A DNA stretch of 64,000 bases from Fibrobacteria bacterium (GCA_043745805.1 JAYTSD010000004.1:213150-277149), one strand, 5' to 3'. Numbered from the stretch's first letter, positions 3,418-64,000 are shown. Notes: generated by a model not told the origin, from the letters alone. Numbers and translations are program-made.

Positions 3418-4530
3418 TTAACCCTTATAGGTATCGCCAAAGACAATATCCGGCTCATTTTTTCCATTTAGCTCTTTTACTTCATGGAATACACGACCCC
3501 GATAATTCACCACACTGGCAAAAAAAGCATCTAATTCAGTAAAAAATTCATCCGTAGATTGTGACCTTAATAAGGTGGTACGCCCTTTGGCACTATTGGG
3601 TAAGCATTTCATAGTACGCGCCGCCATTTGCTTGAGCTTGCCTAGCACGCGCATTTCTATGTCCATTTCTTCGCGCAATAATTCGGCATAGAGTCGAAAA
3701 ATATCGCGTTGTTCATCGAGTGTCGGCTCTTTAGGAATAATGCCGGCATAGACATCGGCCACTTGATTGAATATCCAAGGATTATGCATCGCGCCGCGAC
3801 CAATAGCCACACCGTCTACGCCCCATCGCTCTAATTTATCCACCACATCGTCTACCGTGAGGATGTCCCCATTGCCCACCACGGGAATGCTTGCACGACT
3901 TTTGGCTTCCGCCATAATCTCCCAATTGGCCAAACCCTTATACCCTTGTGCGCGCGTGCGGCCGTGAATCACTAAGGCACTAGCCCCTTCGCCTTCAACA
4001 ATGCGTTGAGTTTCGGGTAAGTTGATGCAATCATCACTCCAACCAATTCGCACTTTTACTGTAACCGGGATTTTAACTGCCTTTTGCACTTTGCCGATAA
4101 TATTTTTCAAATTATCTAAGTCTTTAAGCAAACCGGAGCCGCCACCTTTTTGCACTACTTTGGGCGCGGGGCAACCACAATTGATTTCCACAAAATCAGC
4201 ACCGCAGTCTTCTACCATTTGCGCTCCCCAAGCCATGCGCTCAGGTTCGCCACCAAAAATCTGTACCGTAAAAGGACGTTCTTCTTCCGCAAAAGCCATT
4301 TGTCGACAACATTTGGGATTCAAGCGGGTAATCCCTTCCACCGAAACAAATTCCGAAACCATTAAGCCTGTGCGTCCGCCCGCTAGGCGAGAGACTAATC
4401 GACGAAAAGAAATATCGGTTACCCCAGACATAGGCGCTAAATACACATTGGGGAAAATATCTTTTCCCGCTACCGTGTAGCGTTGTTTAATCTTGGCGGC
4501 TCTCGCCAATAAATCTTCGTGATAAGTCAT
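3418..4530 (-). CDS. dusB: tRNA-dihydrouridine synthase (DusB/NifR3 family)
   Basis: LAPMSGVTD, EINCGCP, VKVRIGW, IHGRTR and GNGDI motifs. Confidence 0.9.
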   Translation of the reverse strand: MTYHEDLLARAAKIKQRYTVAGKDIFPNVYLAPMSGVTDISFRRLVSRLAGGRTGLMVSEFVSVEGITRLNPKCCRQMAFAEEERPFTVQIFGGEPERMAWGAQMVEDCGADFVEINCGCPAPKVVQKGGGSGLLKDLDNLKNIIGKVQKAVKIPVTVKVRIGWSDDCINLPETQRIVEGEGASALVIHGRTRAQGYKGLANWEIMAEAKSRASIPVVGNGDILTVDDVVDKLERWGVDGVAIGRGAMHNPWIFNQVADVYAGIIPKEPTLDEQRDIFRLYAELLREEMDIEMRVLGKLKQMAARTMKCLPNSAKGRTTLLRSQSTDEFFTELDAFFASVVNYRGRVFHEVKELNGKNEPDIVFGDTYKG

Positions 4531-6058: not shown

Positions 6059-7240
6059 TTAACTCCTGTAAGAAGCGTTAATCTTGACATAGTCATAAGT
6101 CAAGTCGCAGGTCCAATAAGTCCACTCACTAGAGCCGGAGTGCAGATTTAAAACGATGGAAATATCTTTAGCCAACATTTTATCCGCCACGTCCTTTTCC
6201 ACATAACTCGCCGGATTGCCACCCCGTAACACGGGTGTTTCGCAAAAATCGAGATCGAGTTTTTGTGGATCAAAAGCCACACCACAAGAGCCCGCCGCTG
6301 CAACCACACGACCCCAATTGGGATCGCCGCCGAACAGTGCGGTTTTCACTAAAGGAGAATTCGCCACCCCTTGCGCTATGGTTTTGGCTTGCGCCGCATT
6401 TTCGCAGCTTTTTACTTGAATGGTGACTAACTTGGTCGCCCCTTCCCCATCACGCACAATAAGCTTGGCTAATTTTTGCATTAAGGAAAGTAAAGAGTCG
6501 TCGAAGGATTTTTGCTCCGTAGCATGGAGGTTAACATAATTCACACCACTGGCCCCATTGGCTAAAAGCAAGGCCGTGTCATTGGTGCTCATATCGCCAT
6601 CTACCGAAATGGAATTAAAACTTTTCTCCACCAAGGCTGCGAATTTTTCTTGATAACTTGCCGGTAATGCTATATCTGTGGTGAGATAAGCCAGCATGGT
6701 AGCCATATTGGGACGTATCATGCCCGCGCCTTTGACCGCGCCGCCGATGCGGATTTCTTCGCCTTGAATCGTTAAGGAAATCTCTCCGATTTTTTCAAAG
6801 GTATCCGTAGTCATAATGGCCTGATGAAAGGGGCTATAATCCTTTTCCTTGGCGAATAAACGGCGAATGCCCGCGCTTAATTTTTCCATTGGTAATACTT
6901 CGCCAATAACCCCGGTGGAAGAAATTAAAAGATCGCCCTTGGCGGATGAAACCTCGAGTAAAAGAGAGGCCGTTTCTAAAACATTTTTATCACCGACTTC
7001 GCCTGTACAGGCATTAGCATTGCCGCTATTGACTAAAACATGAGAGATTTTTTTTCCGCTCTGTAAAACTTTAATGTCATATTTCACCGGCGCCGCTTGA
7101 AAAACATTGGTGGTGAATACGCCGAAGGTTTGTGCGGGAGGTTCGGAAACTAAAATGCCTAAATCGGGTTTGCCATTTTTTTTTATTTGGCAAGCCAAGC
7201 CCCAAGCGATAAAGCCCTTTGGATAAGTCACATTTTGCAT
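6059..7240 (-). CDS. argJ: Bifunctional ornithine acetyltransferase/N-acetylglutamate synthase
   Basis: NSGNANACTG, KGAGMIRPNMATML, DGDMSTND, DGEGATK, terminal INASYRS. Confidence 0.97.
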   Translation of the reverse strand: MQNVTYPKGFIAWGLACQIKKNGKPDLGILVSEPPAQTFGVFTTNVFQAAPVKYDIKVLQSGKKISHVLVNSGNANACTGEVGDKNVLETASLLLEVSSAKGDLLISSTGVIGEVLPMEKLSAGIRRLFAKEKDYSPFHQAIMTTDTFEKIGEISLTIQGEEIRIGGAVKGAGMIRPNMATMLAYLTTDIALPASYQEKFAALVEKSFNSISVDGDMSTNDTALLLANGASGVNYVNLHATEQKSFDDSLLSLMQKLAKLIVRDGEGATKLVTIQVKSCENAAQAKTIAQGVANSPLVKTALFGGDPNWGRVVAAAGSCGVAFDPQKLDLDFCETPVLRGGNPASYVEKDVADKMLAKDISIVLNLHSGSSEWTYWTCDLTYDYVKINASYRS

Positions 7241-55434: not shown

Positions 55435-55564
55435 TTGTGATTTTCTGATGTTGTTCCAAATCTTTATGAATGATATTTAAATGGTATAAGTATTACGTGA
55501 TGCTTATCACAGCATGTCCGATTGTGCTTGCTATGTTGTAGGCAGAACAACCCGGAGAATATTT

Positions 55565-56449
55565 ATGTCAACTCAAGATTGGAATGCCTATTGGGTAGAA
55601 CGTTTAAAGAAAGAAATTCGCGCAAGAAATTATTCTAAAGAAACGGAGAAAAATTATGCGTTGGCGCTGCGAACATTTTTGGAAAAATGTCCAGGGAATC
55701 CCAAAGAAAAAAGTCAGAGAATTGTGCAATCCTTTCTCTTGGATATTCGCGAGAAAAATGGATTAAATGCTTCGACCATTAATCTTTATCGTGATGGACT
55801 AAGTTTTTTCTTTCATCATGTTTTGAAAATGCCAGAAGTCATTGAAGGAATTCCGAGGTTAAAAGAACAACAGGCTTTACCTGATGTGTTTGATATTCAT
55901 TCGATGGCTCGTATGTTAAATGGCATTGAGAACCCTAAACATCGACTTGCGCTATCTTTAATTTACGGCTGTGGACTTAGGGTTGGTGAAGCTGCGTCTC
56001 TGCAACTCAACGAAATTGATTTTGCGCGCAAAACTATTATGATTAGGCAAGGCAAGGGTGGAAAAGATAGAATGGTTATGCTACCTGAAAGCTCGACTCC
56101 CCTTCTCCGCGCGTATCTTAACGACTATAGTCCGAAGAAGTATTTATTCGAAACCTCCATTCCGGGAAAGCCTTTAAATAAGCGTACTTTTCAACTGGTT
56201 TTTAAAGCTGCCTGTGGAAAGGCTGGAATTATTCAAAAAGGAGGGATTCACAGTTTGCGTCATTCCTTTGCCACTCATTTACTGGAGAATGGGACGGATT
56301 TACGGTATATTCAAGCGCTTTTGGGGCATTCTAATTCCAAAACCACGGAGAGATATACCCGGGTGGCGACGAATCATGTCGTTTCCATCAAAAGTCCGAT
56401 GGATATTTTACCTTTAACAGCAACGGATCCGCTTCGCACTAGGTCATAA
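55565..56449 (+). CDS. Tyrosine recombinase, integron-integrase-related but lacking the IntI-specific insertion
   Basis: SAM-like N-terminus (RNYS.ET..Y); GLR, GKGGKDR, HSLRHSFATHLLE, LLGH and ERYT catalytic residues intact. Only about 15 aa between LPES and YLF. ATG 55565 follows a GGAGA RBS. Confidence 0.92.
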   Translation: MSTQDWNAYWVERLKKEIRARNYSKETEKNYALALRTFLEKCPGNPKEKSQRIVQSFLLDIREKNGLNASTINLYRDGLSFFFHHVLKMPEVIEGIPRLKEQQALPDVFDIHSMARMLNGIENPKHRLALSLIYGCGLRVGEAASLQLNEIDFARKTIMIRQGKGGKDRMVMLPESSTPLLRAYLNDYSPKKYLFETSIPGKPLNKRTFQLVFKAACGKAGIIQKGGIHSLRHSFATHLLENGTDLRYIQALLGHSNSKTTERYTRVATNHVVSIKSPMDILPLTATDPLRTRS

Positions 56450-56487
56450 AATCGGGACTTATTACGAATCAGATCACACAAGTGGTA

Positions 56488-56494
56488 GTTATGC
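56488..56494 (+). other. attI-like core site (GTTATGC)
   Basis: First GTT after the integrase. It complements GCATAAC at 57950-57956 and has no hairpin site body upstream. Confidence 0.65.
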
Positions 56495-56650
56495 AACATA
56501 TTGCGTTTAATATGTTGCTACTCGATTTTCCAATCGAGTAGCAAGTTAAATAGTCTGTTTTTAGGGGGCTGAAAACCCAAATCTTAGAAGACTCTGGTTT
56601 GGAATTCTTTTGCTAAGGTATTAAATTAGAATTTGCGGAGATCAAAAAAT

Positions 56651-57268
56651 ATGAAAACTTGGACAACGCTATCCTTTTGTATGGTCTGTCTTCTATGTCC
56701 AGAAGCCAAAGCCTCCTGCGATACTTCTGTCGATCCAAATTTGGAATTTCATCTTGCGGATAAAGACACTCAAATAAACATCCATGAGGGGAATAGTGTT
56801 TATGGCATTAAAGGTGGCCCTGATACAATAATGCTCATAATCAGTTCACCAGGAATGATTCGATTTACAAAATCGCTTTTAAATTCGAACAAAATGGATA
56901 CGCTCTACAAAGTACTCTATCAAGATACGATACTCTCAGCAGAAAGTTGGGATATCAATTTTAGTAACTTCAAAAAAATTATTGCGGACAAAGGCATTTC
57001 ACCACACCAAGCCATTTTTGACAGAAAAACTCCGCTTGATACGATATATATTGTCCCTGATCCAAATGGCAAGCTTTGTCTCTCTAGTGGTGGCTTTTTT
57101 GACTTCCAAATCACATGGATTGGCCATGATGTCGCACAATGGTATAATTCACCAACGATTTTGAACAAACGGGCCAGCAACGATAAATCCCATCGGAAAC
57201 GCTTTTATTTGGATGGGAAATTTTTCTGGAAAAATGACGTGTTTCTTACGAATGGGAAATCACAATAA
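56651..57268 (+). CDS. Secreted hypothetical protein (unit 1)
   Basis: Signal peptide MKTW...EAKA; GGAG RBS. Confidence 0.7.
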   Translation: MKTWTTLSFCMVCLLCPEAKASCDTSVDPNLEFHLADKDTQINIHEGNSVYGIKGGPDTIMLIISSPGMIRFTKSLLNSNKMDTLYKVLYQDTILSAESWDINFSNFKKIIADKGISPHQAIFDRKTPLDTIYIVPDPNGKLCLSSGGFFDFQITWIGHDVAQWYNSPTILNKRASNDKSHRKRFYLDGKFFWKNDVFLTNGKSQ

Positions 57269-57286
57269 ATCACTGACTGGGTAGCT

Positions 57287-57895
57287 GTGGAATCATTAAT
57301 CAAATACCTTACTCTAACAAGAATTATATTTGTCATTTTTTCTTGCTCCGTGGCAATTCTGATTTTTCCAACTTCCTGGCAGCAAAAGTTAATGCTGATT
57401 CAGTTTGTTTCGGATTGGGGGAAATATATTGGGATAACTGCATTGGTATCTGGAGGAATCCTTTTCACATCACTTTTAACAAACTCGTTGGGGTTCACTT
57501 ATGGAGTTACCAGTAAACTCTGGAAACGGAAAGAATTTAAATCCAAATTGAAGAAGTACGTATCTTCTCTCGATGCTTTGGAGCAAGCTGTTTTGAGAGA
57601 ATTTTATACCCAAAGACAAAACTCTATCTTGGTTCCATATAACGATGTGAAAATTCAGTCTCTTCTAGCTAAAGGCATTCTTAAATTGGTTAGTCCCGTT
57701 GGGAAAATCTCTCTAGCAGGTCTGATGGTTAGTGTATTCATTTCTGATGCGGCATCCGACCTTATTGATAACGCCGCCCTTGGGTTGCCCGAAGAGTTAG
57801 TGCCATCCGAATCGACAATCAATTTTATTAATCGCAATAGACCTAGTTGGTTGAATGAAATTCGGAGAATGAAAGAGATATTTGATTGGTATTAG
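57287..57895 (+). CDS. Superinfection exclusion B (SieB)-like membrane protein (unit 1)
   Basis: Two N-terminal TMs, then L...EQAVLREF...Q....VP.....IQSL..KGIL winged-helix-like pattern. Confidence 0.7.
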   Translation: MESLIKYLTLTRIIFVIFSCSVAILIFPTSWQQKLMLIQFVSDWGKYIGITALVSGGILFTSLLTNSLGFTYGVTSKLWKRKEFKSKLKKYVSSLDALEQAVLREFYTQRQNSILVPYNDVKIQSLLAKGILKLVSPVGKISLAGLMVSVFISDAASDLIDNAALGLPEELVPSESTINFINRNRPSWLNEIRRMKEIFDWY

Positions 57896-57949
57896 ATTAG
57901 CATTCAGTGAAAGTAAATACGCCCCCTAAAAACGAAACGCAATACGATC

Positions 57950-58199
57950 GCATAACACAGCCCAGGGTGCTCCGCGCGTGTTTCCACACGCGCTCCGGGG
58001 CTTCGCCCAAATGGTTTTTTGGATTGGTCCGGCTGTTCAAACTCCCTTTCGAGACGGCGCGACGAAACGTCGCTTGCTCTCAAGGGGTTTTCACAGCACG
58101 CTGCGGGCGTTCATTACGGGGGCTTCCGCCCCACTCCATTCTCGTCCTCGCGTTACGGCCCTAATCCAAAAAACCACTTCACCCTCTGCAACGTTGGGC
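57950..58199 (+). repeat. attC-like site, long type, copy 1 (250 bp)
   Basis: GCATAAC...GTTGGGC with nested stems (e.g. TGGTTTTTTGGATT/AATCCAAAAAACCA); 6 substitutions versus the copy at 62312-62561. Confidence 0.85.
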
Positions 58200-58356
58200 G
58201 ACAGGGGCCTCGAAAAGTTGGCCTTCAGCCAAAGTATTGAAACTATTTTTTGGGGGCGAAAAGAAAAATAATGGAAAACAATAAAGAATGAAAACCAAAA
58301 ACGAAATTCAAAAAAATCAAATGATCGTTTTGCTTTAAAAAGTAAAGTAAGATGCC

Positions 58357-58419
58357 GTATAACAAAAGTTTCAAAAATCCTTCGCACGGCTGTGCTCACT
58401 GCTTAACTGTGTGTTATAC
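58357..58419 (+). repeat. Degenerate canonical-type attC inside unit 2
   Basis: GTATAAC-5nt-TTTCAAAA...GCTTAAC-5nt-GTTATAC; spacing and the L' GCTTAAC match aadA-type attC. Confidence 0.65.
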
Positions 58420-58556
58420 GGCCGAAAAAATTTGAAAATATGGAATCGAAAAGAATGGTTAGTCAATCGGTTTGAAGGGGCGTAATTTTAAGGCCTGGTA
58501 TTGAGGTCATTGGGAAATGTAAATGAAGCTACATTTCAAACAAAAGGAGGGAAGAG

Positions 58557-59282
58557 ATGAAAATAACCCTACAAAACCTTCTATTATTTCTTTGCCTAAC
58601 TGGATCAGTTATTGAGGCAAAGGGAAACGGTGGAACTGTACACGTAAAAGGATACACCCGTAAAGATGGAACCTATGTTCAGCCACATAATCGGACAGCT
58701 CCGGACGGAAACTTTAATAATAATTGGAGCACCCAAGGGAACGTAAATCCATATACTGGGGAAGATGGAACAAAAACAGAACCATCCTCGTCTTTAAATT
58801 CGTTGTCTCCTTCACCTGACGCAAGATCGTCCGCAACTGTTCGTACAAATACGACAACTCAGAGTTTTGGAGTTACCTCAGAATCAGAACCCGAGATAAC
58901 GACTGATAACTACGGCTTCTACAAAAGGCACCTAGAATATTATCACGGGGTATTATCGGATCAAAATTCAAACGCATTGGCCAAAGAAAGTGCGCGAAAC
59001 GTAATCAGACAGTATGAAGCATCGGTTAAACTTTATGAATTAGAGTCAGCAGATCCTCCCACGACAAATAAGGAAGACGCTGGTTCCAAATCGAAATTAG
59101 CAGACAAAGATTTTTTGAAAGAGTGCAGTGATCAGTTCAAAATAAATACGTGGGTTCCTGTAGCTTGCAGGGATGACGAAATGTGTCGGAAAATAGGAAC
59201 GCACGGCTTCGAAAATGAGACATGGCTTCCTGCCGCTTGTGCCCAAACACGATCACTGCAAAGCATTACTCCAGAAAAATAG
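58557..59282 (+). CDS. Secreted hypothetical protein (unit 2)
   Basis: Signal peptide; conserved-looking VKGYTRKDGTYVQPH.RTAPD...NNWST.GN.NPYTG motif; AAGGAGG RBS. Confidence 0.8.
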   Translation: MKITLQNLLLFLCLTGSVIEAKGNGGTVHVKGYTRKDGTYVQPHNRTAPDGNFNNNWSTQGNVNPYTGEDGTKTEPSSSLNSLSPSPDARSSATVRTNTTTQSFGVTSESEPEITTDNYGFYKRHLEYYHGVLSDQNSNALAKESARNVIRQYEASVKLYELESADPPTTNKEDAGSKSKLADKDFLKECSDQFKINTWVPVACRDDEMCRKIGTHGFENETWLPAACAQTRSLQSITPEK

Positions 59283-59472
59283 ATTTTAAGCAAGTTAATT
59301 TATTTGGGTTAGACAAATTGTCTAAAATATTGATTCACTCCCAAGAGGACCATCTGAAAAGATCTAAATGACCATCATTTATGGTCGCCGCATAACAATC
59401 GAGTCTCTTTAGCCAAGTTATGTCAAGAGGAAGACAAAGACCGCCCCCAAAGAAATATCGAGGCCCACGATC

Positions 59473-59504
59473 GCCCAACAAGCGCCATGGCGCGAACGTT
59501 GGGC
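59473..59504 (+). repeat. attC-like site, minimal (32 bp) deletion derivative of the short type
   Basis: GCCCAAC-aa-GCGCCATGGCGC-gaac-GTTGGGC. Confidence 0.75.
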
Positions 59505-59600
59505 GACAGGGGCCTCGAATTGTGGCCCTGCGGGCCAAAGATAAAGATTATTTTTTGGGGGCGAGAAATAAGCAAACTAATTCAAGAAAACGAGCGCGGT

Positions 59601-59873
59601 ATGAACCAAGTTGATCCAATACTAAAATGCAGAAAATGTGGAAAAGAAATCTCGAAATTTAAACAGAATGCAGAACAGATTTATGAAGGCATGCATAGGC
59701 TTTGTTTTCATTTTGAGTATGAACACGAAGGCGAACCAGATGAATCCTGCGCAGACGATTCTTCCTGTCCAAACTTCAAAATCAAAGTTTATGAAAAAAA
59801 ACTGAAAGAAGCTGGAGTAGATCTCCAAAAAGTACTAGAAGAAGAAATTAAAAAAGGATGGAATCCGGATTAA
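59601..59873 (+). CDS. Small Cys/His-rich protein (unit 3)
   Basis: CxxC...MH..CFH..YEH...PD..C.D..CP pattern; ATG 59601 inside the unit. Confidence 0.7.
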   Translation: MNQVDPILKCRKCGKEISKFKQNAEQIYEGMHRLCFHFEYEHEGEPDESCADDSSCPNFKIKVYEKKLKEAGVDLQKVLEEEIKKGWNPD

Positions 59874-59882
59874 AAAACAGCC

Positions 59883-59947
59883 GTGTAACAATCTATTTAA
59901 CCTGTCAAGCCCTTCGCCCTCGTTTGCAGGTTAATCGGGCATTATAT
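59883..59947 (+). repeat. Degenerate canonical-type attC inside unit 3 (core GTT decayed to ATT)
   Basis: GTGTAAC-aatct-ATTTAACCTG...CAGGTTAAT-cgggc-ATTATAT, 9 nt after a stop codon. Confidence 0.65.
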
Positions 59948-59977
59948 GGATAAGAATAAAATTAATGAAGGAATGAA

Positions 59978-60694
59978 ATGGAAGACAAGCCTATCCTGGA
60001 TAAAAACAAAACCGAGTTCATAAAATTAAACAACTTGATAAATCAAATTGTTTACGAAAATCGCTTTTCATTGAGTGATGCAAATCGGGTTTATTTGGAT
60101 TCGATCTTAAAATATTCTGATACTATCTTTAACTCGATTTTAAAACGAGATACCCTATTGTTTCGTTCTCGCATAAACAAAATAAATCTCGATAATTTAA
60201 GTGGTGAGGATGTCACACATCCGATAAAAGATATGGGGGCGCCTCCTAAAGCACTTGCTGCCGCTGGAAGAATAAATCCTGTTGGAATTCCTTACCTTTA
60301 TTGTTCCGGCGAGGAAAAAACGGCAGGCGCGGAATCAAGACCGGATAGTGGAAATTACATTACGATTGCAAAAATAAATGTGTTGAAAGATCTAAAAATT
60401 GCGGATTTCACAGTGAACTTTTCAGGAAACGAATTAAGCGAATATTTTCAAATATTATGTTCAGTATTTAGCACTCAATGGCCTGCCGAATACAAAAACC
60501 ATTATTTAATTTCACAATATCTGGCTTCACATTTGAAGACAAATGGATTTCGTGGCATTAAATACAAAAGTGAAGTTAATGCCGATGGGACAAATTTTGC
60601 TCTTTTTCACAAAGAAGATTATGAAATTCGAGAAATCTATTCCAGGCAAACTGTCCGAGTTGATTATTATTTTCATACACCAGGTCATGGGTGA
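59978..60694 (+). CDS. RES-domain protein (putative NAD+-degrading toxin or defence effector; unit 3)
   Basis: MGAPP...AGRINPVGIPYLY...AESRP...GF.GI.YKS...G.NFALF (R, E, S residues). Confidence 0.88.
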   Translation: MEDKPILDKNKTEFIKLNNLINQIVYENRFSLSDANRVYLDSILKYSDTIFNSILKRDTLLFRSRINKINLDNLSGEDVTHPIKDMGAPPKALAAAGRINPVGIPYLYCSGEEKTAGAESRPDSGNYITIAKINVLKDLKIADFTVNFSGNELSEYFQILCSVFSTQWPAEYKNHYLISQYLASHLKTNGFRGIKYKSEVNADGTNFALFHKEDYEIREIYSRQTVRVDYYFHTPGHG

Positions 60695-60787
60695 CTCTAA
60701 TCCGGAACAATTCTTATGTCCTCAGTCTTCGACCTTAAAATACGACAAAGGAGAAGACGCCCCCAAAAAGAAGCGAGGCCCCCGATC

Positions 60788-60843
60788 GCCCAACATGCGC
60801 CATAGCAAAATGATAACACTTCGCTATGGCGCGAACGTTGCAT
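60788..60843 (+). repeat. attC-like site, short type, copy 1 (56 bp)
   Basis: GCCCAAC-at-GCGCCATAGC-aaaatgataacacttc-GCTATGGCGC-gaac-GTTGCAT. Confidence 0.85.
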
Positions 60844-60944
60844 GCAATTGCCCCCACACAAGAGAATGCAAATTACGGAATTACAAAACCGCCCCCCAAG
60901 AAAGAGAGCAGCGAAAATAACGATGATATTCTAATTTATTCTAA

Positions 60945-62108
60945 ATGAACAAAGTTATTTCACCGAAAACAGTACTTATCCTTGGAGCTGGGGCAAGCCA
61001 TGACTGCGGCTTCCCCTTAGGTATTAAACTAATCGACCAAATCATTACGGCGCACCAGGATAAAAAGTTTGTATTATCACTTCGTCGAATTCTTTACAAT
61101 GCCCGAGATTATCTTCGTCGAAATAATCTTTTTGATTTACTTCCTCCCGAAATCGGAGTAGTTCTTTTAAGCCATCAACCATATAGAATATTTGATTTGA
61201 ATGATAAAATCCTTACTGATTGGGTGGTCACCTTAAACGTGTTCAAGTCCATCGACGAATTTATCTCGTACCATAAAAAATATTCGCTGTTGGCGAAGAT
61301 TTCTATCCTGCTAATTCTGTCGAAGTGTGAACTAAAGGAATTTTTTGACAACAGGCATCAAAATGATCAAGTGAAGTCCTATTTTGGACCAGAGCGAACT
61401 TGGTACAATGCCCTTTGGGGAAATATCACCAAAAAGGGGCCAACGTTTCAACAACTAGAAGAAATTCTTAAGACAATTCACATCATAACTTTTAACTATG
61501 ATCGCTCTCTTGAATTTTTTCTGGTGGAAGCAATAAAGAAATTTTTTCCTGAATCCGAGAAGCCTTATACCGATCTTCCAATCACTCACGTCTACGGGTC
61601 CCTTGGACAATTGGATACCCAAAGTGATCTTTTTAATCCATACCAGCAAGTTCCCTATATGAGTGGAAGCACTATTCCTGATGGTTTCCAAATGAATACA
61701 TTCAGTACCTACTTAGGGGAAAAGCAAGAAGATGCAATGCGGACAAAGTACGATGAGCATTTAATCAAATTGGCCACATCGATTGAAACCTATGGGAACG
61801 CCTATCCAATTGATAAAGCGGAAAAAATACAGCAGATGATTATCGAATCAAAAAACACCTACGTTTTTGGATTCTCTTTTGCTGAGCAGAACATGAAAAT
61901 CCTTTTCAAGGGAACTCCTAAGAGACAGCCCCAATGGATATCCAAAGGCACATTCGATGGCTCATGCTATGGAATTTCTAGAGAAATGCAGTTTGATCTC
62001 AAAACATTTTCGTCTAAGTATTTTAAAGGAACTTCTGATTTCTTAGACGATTCTAGAAGAAAAGTTTCTGTCGCAGATTTTTTCACCGACTATTCCATAA
62101 AGATTTAA
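60945..62108 (+). CDS. SIR2-like domain protein (unit 4)
   Basis: VLILGAGAS...FPLG, IITFNYDRSLE, HVYGSL, FGFSF..QN. Confidence 0.85.
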   Translation: MNKVISPKTVLILGAGASHDCGFPLGIKLIDQIITAHQDKKFVLSLRRILYNARDYLRRNNLFDLLPPEIGVVLLSHQPYRIFDLNDKILTDWVVTLNVFKSIDEFISYHKKYSLLAKISILLILSKCELKEFFDNRHQNDQVKSYFGPERTWYNALWGNITKKGPTFQQLEEILKTIHIITFNYDRSLEFFLVEAIKKFFPESEKPYTDLPITHVYGSLGQLDTQSDLFNPYQQVPYMSGSTIPDGFQMNTFSTYLGEKQEDAMRTKYDEHLIKLATSIETYGNAYPIDKAEKIQQMIIESKNTYVFGFSFAEQNMKILFKGTPKRQPQWISKGTFDGSCYGISREMQFDLKTFSSKYFKGTSDFLDDSRRKVSVADFFTDYSIKI

Positions 62109-62311
62109 AGCCGCTTTTTGAATATCATTTCAAAGTAAAACAAATTGCACACAAACGTTGCATGGTGAAATGCTATGCACTTCACCATACCTGAAGAAGC
62201 AATTAATTAATTACATGAAGAGGGGGCGGAAAGAAAAAATTATTTGTCATCCCCTGTGTGTGGGGGCAACTCGGACTGCGCGCCGAAGCGGCGCTTGCCG
62301 GCCTGCGGCGC

Positions 62312-62561
62312 ATGCAACACAGCCCAGGGTGCTCCGCACGGGTTTCCACCCGCGCTCCGGGGCTTCGCCCAAATGGTTTTTTGGATTGGTCCGGCTGTTC
62401 AAACTCCCTTTCGAGGCGGCGCGACGAAGCGTCGCTTGCTCTCAAGGGGTTTTCACAGCACGCTGCGGGCGTTCATTACGGGGGCTTCCGCCCCACTCCA
62501 TTCACGTCCTCGCGTTACGGCCCTAATCCAAAAAACCACTTCACCCTCTGCAACGTTATCC
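62312..62561 (+). repeat. attC-like site, long type, copy 2 (250 bp)
   Basis: ATGCAAC...GTTATCC; body near-identical to 57950-58199. Confidence 0.85.
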
Positions 62562-62740
62562 AAAAAACCGGGGGCAAGATTATAAAAGAAAATAGCGAAG
62601 ACCGGCCAGCGAAGAATCAAAGCAAAGACAATTAGCAAAAGACAAGAAGGAACGAAGAAACTAATTAGCGAAGACAAGACGCTGGCCGGAAGAAAGATCC
62701 TTCGTGGTCTATACCCTGGGCCCCCGTTTTTTCAGATAAC
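62555..62740 (+). other. ORF-less cassette-like unit 5
   Basis: Complementary arms 62555-62575 and 62720-62740 enclose an A-rich segment with an internal IR CCGGCCAGCG/CGCTGGCCGG. Confidence 0.75.
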
Positions 62741-62935
62741 ATCGCGCCATCGTGCTTCGCTCCGCCGTACCGGCTCCGCTCGGGGCTTCGCCCAAATGGT
62801 CTTGCAGGGTGGTTTGGGCATTTCCAATGCCACGCTCCGGGCGCCGCCTACGGGGGCCATACGGCCCCACTTCGGCGACGTCCTCGCGTACAAACCAACC
62901 CTGCAAGCCCACTTCACGCTGGCGCTACGTTGTAC
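62734..62935 (+). repeat. attC-like site, intermediate type (202 bp)
   Basis: AGATAAC-atc-GCGCCA...TGGCGC-tac-GTTGTAC; shares GGGGCTTCGCCCAAATGGT, TACGGGGGC, CGTCCTCGCGT and CCACTTCAC with the long type. Confidence 0.8.
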
Positions 62936-63030
62936 GCAATATGGCAGTTTAAAGTGTTGCCTTCCATCCCTTCGGGACGAAAGACAAAAAAAGAATTTAT
63001 TTTTTAATGGGGCGAATTATAATACCAAAA

Positions 63031-63600
63031 ATGAAAATCAAAAAAAATATTAGGAATAAACTTTATTTTGCATTCGCACTTATCATGTCAATTTTAGGAA
63101 TTTCCGCCTGTGGACCTCATTTGATCAACGAAAAGAAATTCTTAGAGGAAAATCCCTTAAAGGAAGATGATAGTGAAAAATACTCAATAGAAATTAGAGT
63201 CTGGCAAAACTGTTCCCTTTCCACATTTTTACTGTTATTATTTTGGAATAGCTGCGAAGAGAATTACACGGTATATGTCAAATTGGAAACGAAAGATGCT
63301 AATGACACTGGAAAATCCGTTTCCTTCGAAAGTGTGAAAGTTGAAGCAAATGGAATTGAAAAAGAACTCATTCCAAAAGATTTACCCCCTTCAATAATGA
63401 AATTTAAAAAAGACTATCGAGAAGGCATAGAAATATCCGAGGGCTTTTATGTAGGGAAAGAGTTCACATTCCAAGATAAAAATAAGATTAGGGTGAAATC
63501 GAAATTCAAGCTGATGGAAAAAAACCAATTTATTGAAAAAGATGGTTTATTTGTAGTAAAGAAAGAAAGAAAAATAGGTTTCATGTATTATCGAATTTAA
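63031..63600 (+). CDS. Hypothetical lipoprotein (unit 6)
   Basis: Basic N-terminus, hydrophobic core, ISAC lipobox; ATG 63031 lies just inside the left arm. Confidence 0.75.
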   Translation: MKIKKNIRNKLYFAFALIMSILGISACGPHLINEKKFLEENPLKEDDSEKYSIEIRVWQNCSLSTFLLLLFWNSCEENYTVYVKLETKDANDTGKSVSFESVKVEANGIEKELIPKDLPPSIMKFKKDYREGIEISEGFYVGKEFTFQDKNKIRVKSKFKLMEKNQFIEKDGLFVVKKERKIGFMYYRI

Positions 63601-63644
63601 AATCAAAAAGACGCCCCATTAAAAATCAAGAACTGCCATACGGC

Positions 63645-63700
63645 GTACAACATGCGCCATAGCAAAATGATTTCACTTCGCTATGGCGCGAACGTTATGT
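63645..63700 (+). repeat. attC-like site, short type, copy 2 (56 bp)
   Basis: GTACAAC-at-GCGCCATAGC-aaaatgatttcacttc-GCTATGGCGC-gaac-GTTATGT; body differs from 60788-60843 only in 2 loop bases. Confidence 0.85.
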
Positions 63701-64000
63701 GAAAGTTTGCCTAAAAGTGTTGCCGGCCGAACTTGCAGTTCGCCCGGCAATTTTATTGAGATGAATTCTATTATGGGGCGGGGAAGAGAAGAAATTACGA
63801 ATTACGAAAGAAAAGACGCACGCCGGAAAGAGAATTGCAAACCGAACATCTTTTCAATACCTTATTGTGCGAACGGTCTAAATGTTTCACTATTTTAGAC
63901 CCTGCTCTTATCGGCTTAAATTCGAACCAGCTATGCTGCTAATTTAAGTTTAAAAAAATCATTTGGCGACATCATTCCTAATCCCGAATGTGGCGCATAG

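Follow-up and report, generated by a model that had tools for sequence, protein, structure and literature searches.

Near the end of the window, the 64,000-nucleotide (nt) stretch of DNA analysed here, a tyrosine recombinase gene is followed by an array of gene cassettes, U1 to U7. The two ends of each of the six complete cassettes, which we call the left and right arms, are complementary to each other in a chain of paired blocks that covers 29-46 bases, and the arms pair clearly better with their own partner than with shuffled arms or with the arms of other cassettes. The recombinase resembles Xer and IntI proteins and is without the I2 insert of the integron integrases. We lean towards the view that each pair of arms forms the outer portion of a folded, attC-like recombination site of unusual length, which is split by the crossover.

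Complementary arms at the cassette ends

The original prediction had described long complementary arms at U1, U2, U3, U5 and U6, and the positions and letters given for them are all exact (Table 1). It had also stated that every complete cassette is bracketed in this way. U4 (60837-62318), for which it listed no arms, has them too: its core (GTTGCATGC) is complementary to 62310-62318, its second stem (60848-60860) to 62257-62269 and a distal C-run (60889-60896) to 62222-62229. The layout of U4 is a variant one, in which the right arm carries the hairpin and the left arm the C-run. The paired bases number 7+10+13 in U1, 9+10+14 in U6 and about 30 each in U2 and U3, and U5 pairs over 6+7+6 bases with one mismatch and a one-base bulge. 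No right arm of U7 was found in the whole assembly or in the family loci searched.

We compared 36 units from 11 genomes of three genera (g1, g3 and g5). Matches that were found through the arms themselves supplied 28 of these units, junction profiles supplied six, and two were found by eye or with the strict detector described below. Pairs between different units were left out of the arm matches, as were those that looked like chance (L021 1561-3881, and L110 except 6387-6969). After correction of the register, the second stem of the arms is 95.4% complementary to its own partner, against 40.5% when partners are shuffled (at most 52.5% in any of 1000 shuffles), and core positions 4-9 give 94.0% and 49.8%. 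With two right ends misregistered, the mean energy of the arm duplex is -28.7 kcal/mol for the arm's own partner and -13.5 kcal/mol (standard deviation 5.1) for other arms, and the own partner ranks first in 25 of the 36 units. In eight of the remaining 11 units the best-pairing foreign arm is one of the same arm family. The comparison with shuffled and cross-unit controls therefore comes out clearly in favour of the own partner. The original wording needs to be qualified on one point. The arms are specific for their own partner but are better called arm-family-specific than cassette-specific: the set of 36 units has 29 different second stems, U2 and U3 share arms, and identical second stems recur in five groups of units described below.

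The strict detector counted a 7-base core only if an exact block of at least 8 bases lay within 6 nt of it. It gave five matches in the 7.6-kb array, every one with a block of at least 9. Elsewhere it gave one match in window positions 1-55500 and 42 in the remaining 3.55 Mb of the genome, eight of which had a block of at least 9. A chance origin of the arms in the window is excluded. The strict detector was used because a lax chain detector had a high background (58 matches in 1.08 Mb). Smith-Waterman scoring with cheap gaps was also tried and was rejected as too permissive, with shuffled arms scoring almost as well as true ones. In 79 loci from other phyla that carry I2-less relatives of the recombinase (a count that leaves out L075 and L086, which have long inverted repeats) there were about 21 strict matches in 1.01 Mb, which at about twice the background is unconvincing. 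A crude hairpin scan of the flanks of ten distant loci, six of them with I2-bearing relatives, found no recognisable array. At L048 (2495-16400; Clostridia, Oceanirhabdus chromosome) there are at least five copies of 300-700-nt direct repeats beside an I2-less relative of the recombinase, and this is a different kind of repeat system.

The arms had been contrasted with canonical cassettes, which are established to have only about 7 bp of such complementarity. Our classical control consists of only three cassettes, from class 1 integrons on two plasmids. Their ends have 12, 8 and 8 contiguous complementary bases, the longest being in the aac(6')-Il cassette (L127, segment positions 184-676), compared with a textbook figure of 7, and none of the three has a second stem.

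Layout, folding strand and alternative readings

The arms share a layout: a 9-bp core that starts at GTT, a small loop, a second stem of 9-10 bp, a hairpin and a distal G/C clamp. With the core at 0, the second stem lies at left offset 11 (position 12) in the 36 units, and at right offset 11-12 in the 30 units that have a short right loop and 40-60 in the other six. The stem continues to about 20 bases and is followed by the bulged hairpin and by the clamp, which, where the chain detected one, lies at 47-77 on the left and 22-31 on the right. The second stem pairs at 9 of 9 positions in 27 of the 36 units and at 8 or more in 32. The 7-base core is identical at both ends in 30 units (two of the six misses are register errors), and 16 different cores occur in the set. 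The looped-out hairpin on the left arm (e.g. 56515-56544) that had been proposed was borne out, with z below -2 in 27 of 33 left arms of the family. RNAalifold predicted 0 pairs for 33 aligned left arms, because the hairpins differ in length and the alignment is out of register, and the arms were then folded individually. In several units of different arm families the clamp is followed by a purine-rich leader with GAATTACGAA (63781-63830 and 60862-60897 in the window; L006 1033-1075).

Inverted repeats that flank every unit could also be the terminal repeats of small elements moved by a transposase. This we find scarcely credible: 29 second-stem sequences in 36 units are unlike ends that are read by one transposase, the ends always abut the AAC/GTT junction elements beside a tyrosine recombinase, and neither a transposase gene nor a target-site duplication was seen in the array.

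At the junctions between cassettes the order is right arm, RYYYAAC, inner element, GTTRRRY, left arm. From U1 to U7 there are six such junctions; five have the form AAC...GTT, and J5 reads AAC...TAC|GTT. The inner elements are homologous and unequal in length, and the long ones are 60-65% G+C against about 40% for the genome. A near copy of the J1 element is found at 62319-62554. Together with its R boxes the J1 element gives a multi-branched fold (z -7.3 for the bottom strand and -7.7 for the top strand). Counting this genome and an unpublished one (G021), the junction element is present in 18 of 32 family genomes; it was seen in genera g1, g3, g5 and g6, and in the same 32 genomes it was not found in g4 and g2. 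When units were defined by two matches to the inner-element profile, 15 of 18 had arms. Of the other three, one is a false merge in the window, at the short junctions J2 and J3 that the profile does not detect, and two are the units L121 120-6172 and L019 14506-19183.

Two further kinds of site were seen inside armed units. Five small, classical-looking attC sites (CGYATAAC...GTTATACG, 65-168 nt) lie at 58356-58420 in the window, at 4147-4272 and 9825-9937 in L019, and at 7001-7165 and 7699-7866 in L109. All five lie in units of one arm family (GGCCTCG), and they might be entry points for cargo. Within U4 there is a junction without an inner element (...CACAAAC|GTTGCATGG, 62149-62163). It may be a minimal site, or one that has decayed, and would separate a unit of 163 nt.

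If the arms belong to a split site, the part outward of the crossover would comprise a 9-bp R box (GTTRRRYNN), a small conserved loop in which A at position 11 faces C, a second stem of 9-10 bp, the bulged hairpin and the G/C clamp. Inward of the crossover there would be a 3x3 loop, an L-box-like stem and a variable tip of 18 to about 300 nt. The crossover point would be G|TT by analogy, and strand exchange would take place within the long helix rather than at the base of a helix. After integration the cassette would start with the 3' half of the outer helix and end with the 5' half, and excision as a single-stranded circle would reunite the two.

Folding in silico is consistent with this. In five of the six complete window units the site of the circularised unit folds 10-32 kcal/mol better than the site in the array, and the exception is U2, whose neighbour carries the same arms. 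It had been proposed that the single-stranded unit folds as a panhandle that brings its ends together, and that in the excised circle the arms extend the stem of the site. What stands of this is that the two ends are built to pair, as the 95.4% complementarity shows, and that the circles fold better. The functional state could nevertheless be the panhandle itself, formed in the single-stranded integrated array by pairing of the ends across the cargo, with the stem in the circle as a side effect. The two crossover points would then be brought together, which would favour clean excision of exactly one cassette. The panhandle rests on the same energies and complementarity of own partners as the circle, and the present data fit the circle equally well. 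The R boxes of a cassette match each other perfectly, and most arms that meet at the array junctions do not match, with 0-4 arm base pairs at those of U3, U4 and U5. Additionally, the inner elements are alike between cassettes, so the L halves of adjacent junctions could pair beside a panhandle. However, loops of 0.2-6 kb would have to close in single-stranded DNA, and U1, U2 and U6 also pair in part with the arm of a neighbour through the shared clamp. Overall, we regard a panhandle as the working state as doubtful.

Left-arm position 11 is A in 33 of 33 aligned left arms, and in 33 of the 36 units it stands opposite C. Here the bottom strand alone has a pair, G.T, and the top strand has an A.C mismatch. 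The duplex of core, loop and second stem is more stable on the bottom strand in 24 of 30 units and on the top strand in five, with one tie (means -20.9 and -19.9 kcal/mol), and the bottom strand is also the more stable in five of the six circularised window sites. Other mismatches have no strand bias (7 versus 7). We infer that it is the bottom DNA strand which folds. The polarity of the arms does not change in units with reversed open reading frames (ORFs; 332-3682 on contig C9 and 133-950 on contig C29 of this genome), and units without an ORF, such as U5 and L117 6438-6829, are armed. That the arms follow the orientation of the site and flank empty units argues for a role in recombination and against one in expression. 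The free sequence of the arms, combined with the pairing that is kept, argues for base pairing and against double-stranded protein sites.

A role in RNA, by pairing of the 5' and 3' untranslated regions, as an insulator or terminator, or as an antisense element that controls cassette expression, is highly unlikely on these grounds. The arms do bracket the ORFs closely (in U6 the clamp begins at 63612, the stop codon being at 63600), a T run follows some of the left-arm hairpins, and antisense RNA would tolerate G.U pairs. Against this, arm polarity keeps to the site in units with reversed ORFs, ORF-less units are armed and position 11 is an A.C mismatch on the sense strand in 33 of 36 units. 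Nor is the T run a general feature of the hairpins, and the U4 family has the opposite G/C polarity. Rfam, searched at E up to 1, gave only two weak and irrelevant matches in the region.

Several observations weigh against the arms being part of a split site. The inner elements are near-identical between cassettes, which means that either edge could carry the exchange. The percentages given above for the 36 units are inflated, since 28 of the units were found through their arms. The duplex energy of the aac(6')-Il control (-30.0 kcal/mol) is as low as that of the units described here. L019 14506-19183 is a well-bounded unit without any arms, and the arms of L121 120-6172 are decayed. A stricter search gave a partner for 23 of 50 left arms defined by junctions, with 19 matches in 1500 trials at random GTT sites as the control; of the 27 partnerless left arms ten had less than 1.5 kb of sequence remaining, and several others were more mismatched or stood at an array end. 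Because the units are interrelated, the comparison of strand stability overstates a bias that is small, about 1 kcal/mol. No circle, empty site, deletion or excision joint was seen in the assembled contigs of four runs from one study; the joints listed in these contigs fall within shared junction repeats. Finally, 12 units form five groups with identical second stems around unrelated cargo (cargo similarity at most about 100 nt), and a crossover at G|TT alone cannot yield identical arm pairs around unrelated cargo.

The last of these points, together with the existence of empty armed units, would suit the view that the pairing is a by-product of copying or repair in a hairpin, or a leftover of cassette building, with no present function. 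The fixed geometry and the conserved unpaired positions over three genera argue instead for constraint, and copying would erase the A.C position, which makes a functionless origin unlikely.

The recombinase and its locus

The recombinase matches the Pfam families Phage_integrase (1e-40) and SAM_4. It scores 193.8 bits with the integron integrase model TIGR02249 (cut-off 265), the match being in two stretches, and 198.9 bits with the XerA/integron-integrase model (cut-off 220). In the alignment with IntI4 (2a3v), residues 201-220 lie opposite chain residues 180-241, so that about 42 residues are absent where I2 lies. The recombinase was originally described as missing the IntI domain, and the low TIGR02249 score and the IntI4 alignment agree with this. 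A second recombinase of the genome (contig C9, 5102-6022) is 41% identical to that of the window. Positions of about 179-236 of the integron integrase model are unmatched in both, and no match to the family exceeds the IntI cut-off in the whole genome.

A quick tree of 78 relatives, with the root unknown, places the seven I2-bearing proteins in one clade (Shimodaira-Hasegawa-like approximate likelihood ratio test (SH-aLRT) support of 99). Ten recombinases of the family, with that of the window, form a clade (97) among the I2-less proteins, and the C9 recombinase falls outside it. The closest named relative of the window recombinase comes from a metagenome-assembled genome (MAG) of the Fibrobacteres, and 12 of 41 genomes searched, including this one, hold a relative with an E-value no higher than 1e-60. 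Among the members of the wider I2-less family are plasmid genes that carry the annotation y4qK, TnpF or 'site-specific integrase', and one plasmid member adjoins an IS91-family transposase. These plasmid members mean that belonging to the family does not in itself imply a cassette array.

The source is an uncultured sediment bacterium of the Fibrobacterota, represented by a 3.95-Mb MAG (G000) that is 99% complete and about 40% G+C. The runs that contain its DNA are sediment metagenomes, all from one study, and no RNA run was listed. The window is the terminal part of contig C4, and the array (56488-64000) is cut by the contig end. The far end of the array is contig C29 (1 to about 2310), after which come housekeeping genes. 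The array breaks off in C29 after 14 bases, the beginning of a left-arm family (GTTGTGTTCAATGG) that is complete elsewhere, and another genome (G013) has an end of this kind (positions concerned: L006 2303-2320 and 133-146, and L019 10481).

The first cassette begins 39 bases past the stop codon of the recombinase gene. The 13 bases before it (window 56475-56490 with the GTT) are identical in this genome and in G002 (L018, about 2111-2126), where they are half of an 11-bp inverted repeat. A second array (contig C9; L103 1-6022) starts just upstream of the second I2-less recombinase gene and diverges from it. Arms are present in both arrays. With one array downstream of its recombinase gene and the other diverging from it, the genome holds both gene orders.

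The cargo of the window cassettes includes a SieB-family protein (57287-57895, 2.5e-24), a RES-domain protein (59978-60694, 2e-14) and a 387-amino-acid (aa) protein with faint SIR2-like matches (60945-62108, about 1e-4). The remaining four cargo ORFs that were scanned had no family match.

Table 1. Positions of the recombinase gene, the cassette arms and the junction inner elements in the window
Feature	Position	Strand	Remarks
Tyrosine recombinase gene	55514-56449	+	311 aa, Xer/IntI-like, without IntI I2 insert (Pfam, TIGR02249, 2a3v alignment)
attI-like junction	56450-56487	+	From recombinase stop codon to first cassette; ends CACACAAGTGGTA|GTT; putative attI
U1 left arm	56488-56569	+	Core 56488-56494, second stem 56499-56508, hairpin 56515-56544, clamp 56557-56569
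U1 right arm	57921-57956	+	Clamp, second stem, CGATC loop, GCATAAC
J1 inner element	57957-58192	+	236 nt, GC-rich, multi-branched fold
U2 left arm	58193-58258	+	
U2 right arm	59442-59479	+	
J2 inner element	59480-59497	+	18-nt short form
U3 left arm	59498-59563	+	U2 arm family
U3 right arm	60758-60794	+	
J3 inner element	60795-60836	+	42-nt form
U4 left arm	60837-60897	+	Core 60837-60845, second stem 60848-60860, C-run 60889-60897
U4 right arm	62220-62318	+	G-run 62222-62229, second stem 62257-62269, 40-nt hairpin 62270-62309, core 62310-62318
J4 inner element	62319-62554	+	236 nt
U5 left arm	62555-62575	+	186-nt unit without ORF
U5 right arm	62720-62740	+	
J5 inner element	62741-62928	+	188 nt
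U6 left arm	62929-63014	+	
U6 right arm	63612-63651	+	
J6 inner element	63652-63693	+	42 nt
U7 left arm	63694-63784	+	Partner beyond contig end

Relation to known systems and significance

The arrays have much in common with classical integrons. A mostly one-directional cassette array starts right at a tyrosine recombinase gene, the bounds are RYYYAAC and GTTRRRY, the R'' at the end of a cassette matches the R' at its own start, and there is an L-box-like inner stem with a variable tip and a slightly favoured bottom strand. In classical integrons it is the bottom strand that folds, with extrahelical bases that the integrase reads. They differ in that the I2 insert is absent from the recombinase, that the ends pair over 29-46 bases in three blocks rather than over the 8-12 contiguous bases of the three class 1 cassettes, that the sites reach about 400 nt with multi-branched tips, and that in one of the two cases the array is located downstream of the recombinase gene and runs in the same direction. 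The folded site is much longer than a classical one and is probably read in a manner that has yet to be described.

Lambda-type attP arms (P and P') likewise belong to the mobile partner, flank the crossover and come to lie at opposite ends after integration. Those arms, however, are conserved, non-complementary, double-stranded protein sites, whereas the present arms vary freely in sequence and still pair. The Xer/dif system has a single site of about 28 bp with two conserved 11-bp arms, in contrast with the many arrayed sites and variable R boxes found here.

Escudero (2020, PMC7790495) describes recognition of single-stranded hairpins by I2, and also the integration of CTX phage single-stranded DNA by Xer proteins without I2, in which a hairpin mimics the duplex site. 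CTX phage and integrative mobile elements exploiting Xer (IMEX) that use XerCD share with the system proposed here an I2-less recombinase that acts on folded single-stranded DNA. They differ from it in having one phage genome and one dif site, housekeeping enzymes, no cassette array and no cassette-specific ends. Drawing on that work on I2 and Xer, we suggest that position 11, with its G.T mark, and the long helix may stand in for I2 and let an I2-less recombinase hold and orient the single-stranded site. The DUF1874 motif, a multi-stem structure in consecutive intergenic regions, has been proposed as an unusual attC of greater complexity than a hairpin (Weinberg et al., 2017, PMC5737381), and that paper reports no adjacent integrase and describes no pairing across genes. 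Recurrent multi-stem junction elements are common to both, but here there is no Rfam match, a recombinase adjoins the array and pairing extends across the cassettes.

More tentatively, the arrays could represent a separate gene-capture lineage that never used I2, in which an Xer-type recombinase reads a long bottom-strand hairpin. The R arm would then be about 20 bp long, with the G.T mark at position 11, and the matched arms would let a cassette find its own ends. If this is true, integron-like capture is either older than I2 or of independent origin. The empty armed units of the U5 type, together with the arm pairs that are used again, may show cassette building.

We found no description of pairing beyond the R boxes, of a panhandle or of integron-like arrays in the Fibrobacterota in the literature, subscription journals and supplements not being covered. 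Tools that need the IntI insert, or that model attC as a hairpin of 50-150 nt, would be expected to miss arrays of this kind.

Integron biology rests on a single type of enzyme, IntI with its I2 helix, and a single type of site that it reads, a hairpin with the R box as its base. Here, an I2-less recombinase and site stems that run 20-35 bp past the crossover accompany what looks like a working cassette platform in three genera. How cassettes arise is an old question, on which the recurrence of one arm pair around unrelated genes has a bearing. In addition, the platform is a natural test of how single-stranded DNA can be recognised without I2, and of whether I2 was needed for cassette capture.

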